Positions 6,001-12,000 of a stretch of 64,000 nt of DNA are shown one piece after another (within the stretch, counting starts at the first letter, position 1; each line of letters starts with the position of its first letter). Source of the DNA: an uncultured Actinomycetota bacterium (GTDB lineage Bacteria > Actinomycetota > Acidimicrobiia > Spongiisociales > UBA5794); NCBI GenBank assembly GCA_963785245.1, contig CAWAUO010000019.1, positions 31,462-95,461 of the forward strand, read 5' to 3'. The position numbers were made by a program.

Positions 6001-9000
6001 GATCCAACGTGCTGACTGCCGTCGATCTCCACGATCAGCCGATGCTCGTAGCAGACGAAGTCGCAGATGTACCGGCCGATAGGCTCTTGCCGTCGGAACT
6101 TGGCTGGGATGTCATGGCGGATGTGGTACCAGAGCAGAGCTTCCTCCTCGGTGAGTCGACGCCGGAGCACTTTCGCGTTCCGTTCGGCGTGTTCATCTCG
6201 AGGAAAGCGAGGCATGGTCGCACAGTGATTCATCCCGCCCAACGGTTCAACCCCTCCCAGAATATTCCTTCCCCTCAGGGGAAGGTGGCAGCGGCAATGC
6301 ATCCCTGCATTGCCGGTGACGGAAGGGGTTTCCACCTTGCCGCGATCTCTAGTTTCACTACCGGGGCGACGAGAGGTAGCCTCTGGGGCGGCAAGTGGGG
6401 GCGCGTGTTTCCGCCCTGACAACCTGGGAGATACCTGCAGATGGACGGTCCGAGGAGTCGAGGCATCCCACCGAAAGAGGCGATCACCGGTGGGTTCTCC
6501 GACGGATCCGACTTCTTCACCTACATCCTTGCGGGACTCCTCATCGGCCTGCTCCTCGACTGGTTCACCGGGTGGAGCCCCTTCATGACCATCCTGTGGT
6601 CGCTGTTCGGCATCGCTGTCGGCTCCTGGCGCATGTGGGTGCGTTCGGCATCGCTCGAAGAGGACGCCGAGGGGATCAGTCATGGCATCTGACGTCGACC
6701 CGCTTGTCCGCTACGGACCCGTCCCCGACGAGCGTCCGATTGAAGCGATCATCAGCCGGCACATTGCCAAGCGGGGCCTCATCGTCGCCCCGATTCTTGC
6801 CCTCATCTTCGGGACTCATCCAGGGCTGGTCAGGTGCGATTGCGGCCCTCGTCGGCGTCGCCATCGTGGTCGGCAACTTCCTCCTCGGCGGCTGGATCAT
6901 GTCCCGGGCGGCGCGAGTATCCATGAACCTGTATCATGCCGCCGCCTTGTTCGGATTTCTCATCCGGTTGGGACTCATCACGGTGACGATGCTGATCATC
7001 GCCAACGTGACCGACCTCGATCGGATGGCGATGGGTATTTCGGTAGTGGTCAGCTATCTGGTGCTGCTGTCGTGGGAGGCAGTGGCGGTCATGAACGGCG
7101 CGGAAAGGGACCTCGAGTGGAGCAACTAATCCTGGCGGCCGGGGAGTGCGATCCCTCAGCTGACATCATCTGTCGGCCGGAGAACGTGGTCGACCTCTTC
7201 CAATTCTCCGACCCGCTGTTCACGATCGGGCCGCTCGGATTCACCCGCACCGTCCTCCTGATCTTCCTCGTCATGCTCGTGGTGCTTTCTCTGCTGTTCT
7301 TCGGCCTGCGTCGCAAGAGCGTGATTCCGTCGAAGTTCGGCGTGGCGATCGAGAGTCTCGTCGTATTCGTCCGCGATGAGATCGCCGTCGGCATCATCGG
7401 ACCCGAGGGCATCGAAGTACTTCCCGTGGCTGTTGTCGATCTTCCTGTTCATCCTGATCGGCAACGCCTTCGAGGTCCTGCCGCTCGTGAACTTCCCGGT
7501 CACATCGCGCATGGCGATCCCCCTCGGACTCTCCCTGCTGACCTGGGTGATCTTCGTGTTCGTCGGCTTCAAGAAGAACGGGTTCTCATACTTCACCGGT
7601 CTCGCATGGCCGAAGTCGGTTCCGCTTGCGCTGCGTCCACTCGTCGGTCTCATCGAGGTCGTGTCGACGTTCATCCTGCGGCCCATCACGCTGGCCGTCC
7701 GACTCTTCGCCAACCTCGTAGCCGGTCACCTCATGCTGACACTTCTGCTCGTCTCGGGGTACGTCTTCATGTCGAGTGTCACCACGATCGGCGCCCGTGC
7801 CCTCATCGGAATCCCGTGGTTCGTCTTCGGCCTCGGCATCTACATGTTTGAAGTGGTGGTCATCATCTTGCAGGCCTACATCTTCACGCTGCTGTCCGCG
7901 GTCTACGTCCAGACATCTGTTCATCCCGAGCACTGAGTAAAAGGAAAGGCACACAATGGAAGAGATCAAAGGTGCGATTGCCCTCGTCGGTTACGGCCTC
8001 GCCGCAATCGGCCCGGGTATCGGCATCGGCCTCGTGGTCGCTGCAGCCATCAGCGCGATGGCCCGTCAGCCCGAAGCCGCCGGCATGGTGAGAACCACGA
8101 TGTTCCTGGGTATCGCGTTCACTGAGGCGCTTGCTCTGATTGGCTTCGTTCTGTTCTTCATCGCTTAGGAGGAACTGAGCATGTTGTCGTTCATGACCCA
8201 GGCCTTCCTCCTCCTTGAGGAGGCGGTCGGCGCAGAGGAAGAGCCCAGCGGTATCGACTTGCTGATCCCCGACAAGAACGAGGCCATCGCGGGAGTTATC
8301 GCGTTCGCCATCGTCTTCTTCTTTGTGTGGAAGTGGGCGGTTCCTGCGTTGAACAAGACGCTCGAGGCCCGTCAACAGGCGATCAAGGCCGAACTCGAGG
8401 CAGCTGAATCCGCCAAGGTCGAGGCCCAGAGCCTTCGCGATGACTATCAGGAACAGCTCGCGGGCGCGAAGTCCGAGGCTGCTCAGATTGTCGACGAGGG
8501 CAGGACCGCCGGTGAGCAGGTGAAGGCCGATGTGGTGGCACGGGCCGAGGCCGAGGCCGATCAGATCAAGGCACGGGCCGAGAGCGATCTCGTCGGTGAG
8601 CGTGATCGCGTGGCCGGTGAACTCCGACGTCGAGGTCGCTGATCTCTCGATCGACGTTGCTGAGAAGGTCGTTGGGTCGAACCTCGACGATGCGCGTCAG
8701 CGCGAGTTGGTCGATCGCTACATCGACGATCTCGGAGGAGTGCGCTAGCTGATGAGTCTCTCCGCAGATTCCGGCCGCCTCGACGGCTACGCCTCGGCGC
8801 TGATGGACATCGCCCGAGCCGAGGGCGATGCCGATGCGTTCGTCGATGAGTTCTACTCAGCCGCCACGTCAATCTCCAAGAACGCCGAATTCCGCGACTC
8901 GTTGACCGATCAGCGCATCCCAGTCGCCCGGAAGCAGGGGATCATCACCGACGTCCTCGGCATGCGCGTCAACAGCGTCGTCGTTGCGGCGATCAACTTC

Positions 9001-12000
9001 GTGATTGCCGTCGGCGAGGCGAAGCACCTCGAAGACCTTGCGTCGCGCCTTGCCAATCTCGCCGCAGAGCAGGAGGGCACGGTCGTTGCCGAGGTGCAGA
9101 GCGCGGTGGCGCTCGACGCCGGCCAGGTCGAACGACTCGAAGCCGCCCTGTCGAAGGCGACCGGCAAGAAGGTGCAGGCCAAGGTCGTGACCGACCCGTC
9201 CCTCATCGGGGGAGCTGGTCGCCAAGATCGGAGACACGATATTCGACGGCTCGGTGAAGAGCCGTTTTGCAGACGTACGAGAGCAGTGGGGTTAGGTAGA
9301 TGGCTGAACTGACACTGGATCCGGCGGAGATCACCGCCGCACTCCACAAGAATCTCGACGACTGGTCACCGTCGGTCGAGGCGGAGACCATCGGCTACGT
9401 CATGTCGATCGGCGACGGCGTCGCCCGCGTCTCCGGCCTCCCCGGTGCGATGGCTTCCGAACTCCTCGATTTCCCGGGTGGGCTGATCGGCGTCGCGCTC
9501 AACCTCGACGAGACCTCCATCGGAGCCGTGCTGCTTGGTGAGTCGTCCCACATCGAAGAGGGCGACGAGGTCCGTTCGACCGGGCGGGTGCTCTCCGTTC
9601 CCGTCGGCGATGCGTTGCTTGGCCGGGTCATCGACCCGCTCGGCAACCCGATTGATGGCAACGGTCCGATCGACACGACCGAGACCCGCCTCCTCGAGAC
9701 GCAGGCCCCGTCGGTCGTCGAGCGCCAGCCGGTGAGCCAACCGCTCCAGACCGGCATCAAGGCAATCGATGCGATGACGCCGATCGGTCGGGGACAGCGC
9801 CAGCTGATCATCGGTGACCGCCAGACCGGCAAGACCGCCGTCGTGGTCGACACGATCCTGAACCAGAAGGGTCTCGGCGTGAAGTGCATCTACGTCGCGA
9901 TCGGTCAGAAGAACTCGACGGTTGCAGAAGTCGTCGACACCCTCGAAAAGGGTGGGGCTATGGACTACACCGTGATCGTGAACGCCTCCGCCTCCGATGC
10001 GGCCGCCCTCCAGATGTACGCTCCGTACTCGGGGTCGGCCATCGGCCAGTACTGGATGTACAACGGTGAGCACGCCCTGGTCATCTTCGACGATCTGTCG
10101 AAGCAGGCTGTTGCGTACCGCGAGCTGTCGCTGCTGCTGCGCCGCCCACCCGGCCGCGAGGCCTATCCCGGGGACGTGTTCTATCTCCACAGCCGGCTCC
10201 TCGAGCGTGCCGCGAAGCTCTCGGACGAACTTGGCGCCGGGTCGTTGACGGCACTGCCGATCATCGAGACGAAGGCGAATGACGTTTCTGCCTACATCCC
10301 GACGAACGTGATCTCGATTACCGACGGGCAGATCTTCCTCGAGACCGATTTGTTCTTCTCCGGCATCCGGCCGGCCATCAACGCCGGCATCTCGGTTTCC
10401 CGTGTCGGCGGCAACGCACAGGTCAAGGCCATGCGGAAGATCGCAGGGCCGCTGAGACTCAACCTGGCGCAGTTCCGCGAACTCGCGGCGTTCGCCGAGT
10501 TCGGATCCGAACTCGATGCGACGTCGCTTGCTCAGCTCGACCGGGGTCGCCGGGTCGTCGAAGTTTTGAAGCAGGGACAGTTCCGGCCGCTTCCCGTGGC
10601 CGACCAGGTCGTCGCCATCTTCGCCGTGACCGAGGGGTTCATGGACGACGTCGACGTCGGCGAGGTCCACGCCTTTGAAGAGCAGCTCCGCGACCACATG
10701 CGGACTCGCTACTCACACCTCCTCGACCAGATCGCTGAGACCGGCGAGATGGACGAGGACGCCATGCGCGCCGCCATCGAGGAGTTCGCCTCTTCGTGGT
10801 CGGGCGCTGGCCGCTCCGCATGGGCGGAAGCGGCCGCGCGGCGCGCCGAGGACATCGACGCGAAGGCCATGCGGGAGGGCGAGCACAGCCGACCGGTCGG
10901 GGAGGCGTAGCCACCAATGGCTTCGGCTGAGCTTCGACTGATCCGTCGCAGGATCCGCAGCGTCGAATCGACGATGAAGATCACGCGCGCGATGGAGCTG
11001 ATCTCCACCGCACGGATCGGCAAGGCACAAAGCCGCCTCGTCGCAGCACGGCCCTACGCCGCGAAGCTCGAAGAGGTGATTCGGAACGTCGCCTCAGCCG
11101 GGGGAGCGTCTCATCCGCTGCTCGAACAACGCGACATCGAGACGGCAGGAATCGTCATCGTGTCGTCGGATCGCGGGCTCGCAGGTGGCTACAACGGCTC
11201 GGTCATCCGCCTCGGTGAGCGGGCGATCCGCGACCATCTGGCGGCAGGGCGCCGGGTCAACCTCTACGTCGTCGGCAGGAAGGCCCAGTCCTATTTCGCC
11301 TACCGGAAGCAGGCCATCGAGCACGCCTGGCTCAACGTCACCGATCTTCCGGTGTACGCCGACGCCCGCATGATCGCCAACGTCTTGCTGAACGACTACG
11401 CCGAGAGCAGCGTCGACTCCGTCGAGGTGTTCACCACCGAGTACATCTCGGCCCTCACCCAGAACCCGATCCACCGCACGCTGCTCCCGATCACGGCTCC
11501 GAAGCTGGAGGGCGCTGAAGCCGCAGCTCCGATCGGCTACTCGTTCGAGCCGTCCCCCGAGGGCATCCTCAACCGGCTCCTTCCTCGCTACCTCGAGGGT
11601 TCGATCTTCGGAATCCTGCTCGACGCCTCGGCATCGGAGCACGCCGCGAGGCGCCGGGCGATGAAGGCAGCAACCGAGAACGCAGACGAACTGACCAGGA
11701 TCCTGACCCGAGGGGCCAACCAAGCCCGGCAGGCAGAGATCACGACCGAGATCTCAGAGATCGTCGGCGGCGCTACGGCGCTCGCCGACGATTGAGTAAC
11801 GAAGGATGGAGCACCAATGAGCGAGAGCACACTTCCCTCCGGCCGGATTGTGAAAGTGGCTGGGCCGGTCGTGGACGTCGAGTTCCCGCCCGACGCTCTG
11901 CCTGAGATCAACTTCGCCCTCGAGGTTGATCTGACGATCGGCAAGAACACGAGCACGATCAAGTGCGAGGTCGCGCAGCAGCTTGGTGACAACCTGGTGC

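Follow-up and report, generated by a model that had tools for sequence, protein, structure and literature searches.

Does the uncultured bacterium described here lack part of its ATP synthase, does it decode shifted frames by unusual means, or is an ordinary operon misrepresented in its assembled sequence? The question is raised by a stretch of 64,000 nucleotides from an Actinomycetota bacterium of the class Acidimicrobiia (positions 31,462 to 95,461 of contig CAWAUO010000019.1, GenBank assembly GCA_963785245.1; the whole stretch is referred to here as the window), in which the ATP synthase genes atpI, atpB, atpF and atpH each contain a frameshift. Comparison with related contigs indicates that the four frameshifts are very probably artifacts, single-base insertions left behind when two strains were collapsed into one consensus, and that they represent neither recoding nor gene loss. 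Read at face value, the genome would be annotated as having no functional membrane sector of ATP synthase and no KorA, UDP-glucose dehydrogenase and more. Such a reading would inflate the pseudogene count, and it would mislead metabolic reconstruction as well as searches for recoding or genome decay.

The ATP synthase operon and its four frameshifts

A complete F-type ATP synthase operon was identified on the plus strand from the list of open reading frames (ORFs) and from Pfam scans, with the gene order atpZ-I-B-E-F-H-A-G-D-C. It begins with an atpZ-like gene (ATPase_gene1, PF09527; 6441–6692) that is intact by Pfam and encodes 83 amino acids. This is followed by atpI (6682–7129), atpB for subunit a (7117–7936), atpE for subunit c (7956–8168; intact, 70 amino acids), atpF for subunit b (8181–8748), atpH for the delta/OSCP subunit (8752–9295), and the intact genes atpA (9300–10910; 536 amino acids), atpG (10917–11795; 292 amino acids), atpD (11817–13241; 474 amino acids) and atpC (13241–13567; 108 amino acids). 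Subunits a, c, b, delta, alpha, gamma, beta and epsilon are thereby encoded in canonical order, and the AtpA and AtpD protein sequences are identical to products found on other contigs.

An earlier note on this DNA had described one frameshift in each of atpI, atpB, atpF and atpH, with atpE and atpAGDC intact, and this description was borne out by the ORF list, by Pfam and by DNA alignment. The reading frame passes from 1 to 2 in atpI, atpB and atpH and from 0 to 1 in atpF, so that in all four genes the downstream frame equals the upstream frame plus one. The conserved C-terminal sequences that the note had placed in another frame are indeed located there. For atpB, positions 2–51 of the ATP-synt_A profile are matched in one frame and positions 56–217 in the next; for atpH, OSCP profile positions 5–146 and 148–171 are matched in different frames. 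By Pfam, the C-terminus of atpF and the greater part of atpI are also read in the next frame, with the ATP-synt_I match of atpI lying in the downstream frame. As deposited, the genes encode 43 native residues followed by 346 out-of-frame residues (atpI), 99 followed by 145 (atpB), 149 followed by 4 (atpF) and 153 followed by 33 (atpH). The truncated subunit a is missing the AVRLFAN stretch (at residue 193 of AtpB after correction), which lies downstream of the shift and which we take to be the location of the essential arginine.

Related sequences fell into three sets. The first consists of seven independent metagenome contigs from ENA and JGI (L001–L007), recovered by exact-protein look-up with AtpA, and an additional JGI contig (L009), which together share 97–99.6% DNA identity with the window. 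The second consists of five GTDB genomes at 81–88% identity (L012–L016), the closest being the Actinomycetota/Acidimicrobiia metagenome-assembled genome (MAG) MFD09964.bin.1.174. The third consists of two long contigs, L101 (954,840 bp) and L102 (212,437 bp), with approximately 94% identity to the window and with names in what is presumably the style of the Flye assembler. An 83-amino-acid gene is called at the atpZ position in L001, L002, L004, L101 and L102.

The comparison with orthologous operons, which the earlier note had proposed, gave a uniform result. Over coding DNA from 4402 to 13551, the window is longer than the comparators by a single nucleotide at each of the four sites, and it has no other indel. 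One or more of these sites are covered by about 20 independent contigs that are 81–99.6% identical to the window, and the extra base is absent from every comparator that covers a site. In every comparator that holds the complete gene, atpI, atpB, atpF and atpH are called at 148, 272, 188 and 180 amino acids, respectively. Deletion of one base per gene in the window yields stop-free ORFs of the same lengths (corrected atpI being 447 nucleotides long), and the restored proteins are 98–99% identical to those of the relatives: AtpI and AtpB match the L101 and L102 proteins at 147/148 and 270/272 residues, and AtpF and AtpH match the L001 proteins at 186/188 and 179/180 residues. Differences from L001 in the restored frame are overwhelmingly synonymous on both sides of the insertion, with ratios of non-synonymous to synonymous differences (pN/pS) of 0.09 for atpI and 0.10 for atpB. 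After correction the operon resembles the Actinomycetota F1Fo ATP synthase operon in gene order, Pfam families and product lengths, and the four artifactual bases are the sole difference from it. The operon of this uncultured Acidimicrobiia bacterium is very probably normal and intact in nature, and we see no new biology in the four atp frameshifts.

Searches aimed at the shifted sequences themselves were negative. The gene calls searched held no record of the frameshifted AtpF or AtpH products. JGI metagenome contigs were scanned for site 3 (in atpF) with the extra base optional, and the three related contigs recovered all lacked the extra base. A pattern scan for the same site in the GTDB genomes returned no match, indicating that the source genome is not among the species representatives of that set. 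A 24-nucleotide match in one contig (L011) resembled an independent insertion allele at site 3; it was rejected as a chance match because the contig has no other similarity to the window. Two of the comparators contain single-base insertions of their own. In L101, a non-homopolymer insertion in atpE, ATC[G]AGC (L101 13430–13600; window equivalent approximately 8051), results in a gene call of 56 amino acids instead of 70, and L012 has an extra T in atpA (window equivalent approximately 10078). This class of artifact is not unique to the assembly behind the window. The few events in which the window lacks one nucleotide are either intergenic or due to these two insertions in the comparators, and no comparison revealed a net deletion in coding DNA of the window.

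A two-haplotype mosaic at the insertion sites

The relatives define two haplotypes across the operon: haplotype L, represented by L101 and L102, and haplotype S, the short-read type represented by L001–L009. The two are 91–96% identical to each other. A four-way alignment of the window, L101, L102 and L001 revealed that the window belongs to neither throughout. Over 6441–6900 its identity is 99.1% to L against 91.7% to S; past 8400 the relation is reversed, with 99.7–99.9% identity to S and approximately 92% to L. Over 6345–8300 the L and S alleles are interleaved, switching every few tens of bases.

Every extra base falls at neighboring L/S differences, and each matches the allele of the other haplotype. 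The bases were located by DNA alignment to relatives, and the ranges given for them reflect alignment ambiguity; the approximate positions in the earlier note (6820, 7412, 8632 and 9217) proved right to within a few bases. At site 1 in atpI (6811–6818), the window reads TTCGGGACTCATCCAG and haplotype L reads TTCGGACTCATCCAG, the added G matching haplotype S (TTCGGGATTC); the window's TTCGGGACTC corresponds to haplotype L with the extra G of S's GGG, adjoining a GGA/GGG difference. At site 2 in atpB (7410–7414), the window's GGCATCGAAG corresponds to GGCATC-AAG of L with the last G of GGCGCG-AAG from S, and L's ATC is here joined to the final G of GCG from S (alignment pattern LLISS). At site 3 in atpF (8630–8632), CGACGTCGAGG corresponds to CGACG-CGAGG of S with the T of CGGCGTCAAG from L, this being the T of L's CGT (pattern ISS.S). 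At site 4 in atpH (9213–9215), GGGGGAGCTGG is the exact shortest common supersequence of GGGGGAGTGG from L and GGGGGGCTGG from S, the supersequence length of 21 being that of the window stretch (pattern ISS). All three of the insertion columns that could be aligned lie within 1 nucleotide of an L/S substitution column, given a background of 0.137 per site (P approximately 0.0025).

Two other regularities were considered for the inserted bases. A bias toward A and T, or a tendency to create short palindromes (TCGA, AGCT), was rejected because the base scored as inserted changes with the comparator. Placement of the extra base beside its own transition partner was near chance expectation by a rough estimate, and was not used as evidence.

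The earlier note had implied a contrast between membrane/stator genes and F1 genes. A hand calculation from gene lengths gives a chance of approximately 0.001 that four indels placed at random on the 6.8-kb operon would fall one in each of these four genes. The hit on atpI, atpB, atpF and atpH is non-random because these genes lie in a strain-variable zone, and gene function is not the cause; the contrast follows the edge of the mixed-haplotype zone. Half of the close short-read contigs (4 of 8) begin between 7309 and 7859, and these contig starts, together with the variable content between glyA and atpZ, fit a strain-variable zone at this location.

Several features of the operon's flanks differ among strains. 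In the stretch between glyA and atpZ (5788–6440), the window and L101 carry a DUF559 gene (5877–6197, minus strand), L001 additionally carries an insertion sequence-type transposase (DDE_Tnp_1), and L102 has three other small genes instead. The spacer at 6282–6334 contains many small indels. Gene order after atpC is not conserved between the window (13600–15100) and L101, L102 and L012: a Wzy_C gene is found in L101 and L102, and a small unknown gene, a Polyketide_cyc2 gene and a HIT gene follow atpC in the window and the short-read contigs. Farther upstream, the non-coding prfA-prmC spacer (window 2431–2526) has indels of up to 44 nucleotides relative to L101–L104.

Insertions in other genes of the window

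Frameshifts of this kind extend beyond the four atp genes to which the earlier note had drawn attention. A Viterbi frame path based on codon usage was computed over the whole window, replacing a simple frame plot of GC content at third codon positions that was too noisy, and it flagged many other frame changes on the same strand. The window contains at least 13 more single-base insertions, including insertions in genes for a dehydrogenase, a 2-epimerase and KorA, and two further genes have a Pfam match split between frames.

The most extreme case is the gene for UDP-glucose 6-dehydrogenase (ugd; 48204–49540, minus strand), which by DNA alignment has approximately 11 net +1 insertions within 1.3 kb and is broken into roughly eleven pieces. 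When stitched together, the pieces form a protein of 440 amino acids that is 90% identical to intact 440-amino-acid homologs (P0001). The window switches between two alleles of this gene, L098 and L099, and the insertions adjoin single-nucleotide polymorphisms (SNPs). As in the atp genes, individual sites read as a union of the two alleles: CCACTAT combines CCACAT with CCCTAT, and GTTGGGAACG combines GTGGGAACG with GTTGGGACG. Most of the insertions in the gene are not homopolymer length changes. Many diverged dehydrogenase alleles (75–90% identity) are present in the same kinds of samples.

The gene korA, encoding the alpha subunit of a 2-oxoacid:ferredoxin oxidoreductase (58665–60555, plus strand), has an extra A at approximately 59665–59667 (GAAG in place of GAG), and its POR_N match is split at profile positions 78/79 (approximately 59669). 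Removal of one base yields a protein 100% identical to an intact protein of 629 amino acids (P0121) on an ENA contig (L100); alignment of that contig's DNA with the window shows 35 substitutions and a single gap, which is the extra A. A gene for UDP-N-acetylglucosamine 2-epimerase (50640–51741, minus strand) has one extra base at approximately 51192 by DNA alignment, with positions 12–159 and 169–346 of the Epimerase_2 profile in different frames and the split at approximately 51183. A second gene for this enzyme (24077–25187, plus strand) is a candidate for the same defect by Pfam; Epimerase_2 positions 4–131 and 133–310 are in different frames, split at approximately 24598.

Most other genes of the window are intact by Pfam, and the insertions are therefore strongly clustered; the interval 9300–16400 contains none. 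A cloning bias against toxic genes had been considered for the atp genes and was rejected once the same defect appeared in cytoplasmic enzymes.

Explanations for the extra bases

The mosaic suggests how the extra bases very probably arose. Reads of two co-occurring strains, carrying L and S, would have been piled together in one consensus. Where neighboring positions differ between L and S, a read from one haplotype may align to the other with an insertion and a compensating deletion; if the consensus keeps the insertion and drops the deletion, the outcome would be one haplotype's sequence carrying a single added base from the allele of the other. Hybrids of this kind would be expected from column-wise or graph-based consensus procedures. 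A precedent exists in the collapsed long-read assembly of Trypanosoma brucei Lister 427, a consensus over two alleles in which nearby allelic variants led to wrong read alignments, to INDEL errors and to truncated ORFs, the ORFs regaining their expected length once the haplotypes were separated (Cosentino et al. 2021, PMC8445201). That case differs in that it concerns a diploid eukaryote with approximately 4 variants per kb and read-level proof, whereas the window would represent two mixed bacterial strains approximately 6–9% apart over the operon, has insertions only, and is known from its sequence alone.

Some points weigh against a collapsed two-strain consensus. The artifact is deduced by comparing sequences rather than seen in a read pile-up, and it is from context that the source of the window is probably a long-read metagenome assembly. 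The insertion-only outcome is explained just by supposing, as we do, that consensus methods favor the longer path. Apart from the extra base, the window is nearly all S at sites 3 and 4, and the presence of L as a minority in the sample is here an assumption. In addition, the glyA region has 115 substitutions relative to L001 and zero coding insertions; divergence from a comparator is thus insufficient by itself to yield insertions, and co-occurrence of the two haplotypes in the source sample would be required.

The only serious alternative is a plain technical error, either random insertion noise in long reads at thin coverage or basecalling error linked to homopolymers or motifs, in which strain mixing plays no part; it too would be an artifact. 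The strong clustering of the insertions, with none across 9300–16400 and approximately 11 within the dehydrogenase gene, could reflect local coverage, and two of the atp sites have some homopolymer character: site 1 is readable as a change from GG to GGG, and site 4 adjoins the GGGGG run that the earlier note had pointed out in atpH (9208–9212). However, sites 2 and 3 extend no homopolymer, and the added base at site 4 is A or C rather than G. Such an error also fails to account for the siting of the extra bases at L/S differences and for their match to the other allele, within surroundings that are themselves an L/S mosaic, and the accuracy of the window at the level of substitutions is otherwise high, as judged by the identity of AtpA and AtpD to proteins from other contigs. 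Frameshift-causing indels are well documented in long-read consensus sequences, and homopolymer errors of Nanopore, 454 and Ion Torrent consensus resemble the present case in that single-base indels fragment the gene calls of MAGs and are recognized by the reduced length of the proteins relative to their homologs (Sereika et al. 2022, PMC9262707). The window differs from these cases in that two or more of its four atp insertions leave homopolymer lengths unchanged, as do most insertions in the dehydrogenase gene. It differs also in direction: homopolymer consensus errors are usually deletion-rich, whereas all lesions in the window are insertions. On this evidence we consider a technical error that involves no strain mixing unlikely.

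The earlier note had kept programmed frameshifting and real gene loss as live options, and both are now very unlikely given that the sites are not conserved, that the lesions are +1 only, and that no other record contains them. If the mutations were real, the strain would carry pseudogenes of Fo/stator genes, ugd, korA and others, and would be decaying or dependent on its neighbors. The deposited sequence does have the extra bases, and its private alleles relative to the short-read contigs over 6404–8949 would be compatible with a distinct lineage. But all of the frameshifts resolved by DNA alignment (approximately 17), as well as the two taken from split Pfam matches, are +1, and there are no deletions, in-frame stops or larger lesions, whereas bacterial gene decay is biased toward deletion. 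It would be necessary to suppose that approximately 11 lesions accumulated in one gene of 1.3 kb with neighboring genes untouched, that atpI and atpB retained, in the restored frame, the low pN/pS of genes under strong selection, and that the F1 genes stayed perfectly conserved; the variants are also absent from every other assembly and protein record examined. We regard real mutation as very unlikely. Less likely again, and close to negligible, is that the shifts are decoded, through programmed +1 ribosomal frameshifting, quadruplet decoding or correction at the transcript level. The +1 direction is shared by all the sites, and site 4 is preceded by a G-rich run similar to a Shine-Dalgarno-like stimulator. 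In the programmed +1 frameshift of prfB, the +1 direction is likewise needed for read-through, but prfB pairs a conserved CUU-UGA shift site with a Shine-Dalgarno-like element upstream of it, and this conservation extends across bacteria. The atp sites are not conserved, no ortholog at 81–99.6% identity having the extra base; they share no common motif; and no stop codon is present at any of them, the zero frame continuing for 346, 145, 4 and 33 codons. A gene with approximately 11 shifts could not give a useful product by such means, and the window contains no tRNA gene, hence no pointer here to an unusual decoder.

Overall, only a slight residual chance is left that the extra bases are really in the DNA. 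The corresponding biological scenario, in which they are real in one strain, this strain being either a defective lineage with very recent loss of Fo, korA and ugd function or one that tolerates many +1 insertions by a novel form of decoding or correction, is in our estimate highly improbable. The sequencing or assembly error that the earlier note had favored is supported by the comparators that are without the extra base, by the close identity of the restored proteins to those of relatives, and by the recurrence of the defect in unrelated genes. A mixed-strain consensus error would be recognizable by a signature of insertions only, mostly non-homopolymer, at adjacent SNPs between haplotypes and clustered in strain-variable zones, and this signature could be used as a filter for similar findings in the same or similar assemblies.

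Additional candidate shifts lie within a very large cell-envelope polysaccharide cluster that spans 15458–56000. In a SpoIID/CWB2 gene (16941–19457, plus strand), the frame path and three-frame reading suggest +1 shifts at approximately 17085, 17395 and 18035, the last alone having Pfam support: SpoIID is matched at the end of an ORF at 17366–18058 and the CWB2 repeats in an overlapping ORF (17631–19457) in another frame, which fits a shift near 18035. For the glycosyltransferase genes at 46000–47600 (plus strand), the frame path and three-frame reading likewise suggest +1 shifts, at approximately 46121, 46551, 46798 and 47581. Exact look-ups of the window proteins at 20209–21495 and 42821–43990 returned no match, probably due to wrong start codons. 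Three long ORFs of the cluster are without a Pfam match (26227–27993, 29147–31219, and 34961–38638, the latter of 1225 amino acids). The cluster otherwise encodes sugar dehydratases, epimerases, a Bac_transf protein, an ABC-2 exporter pair, many glycosyltransferases of families GT1, GT2 and GT4, a pyruvyl transferase and two CWB2-repeat proteins.

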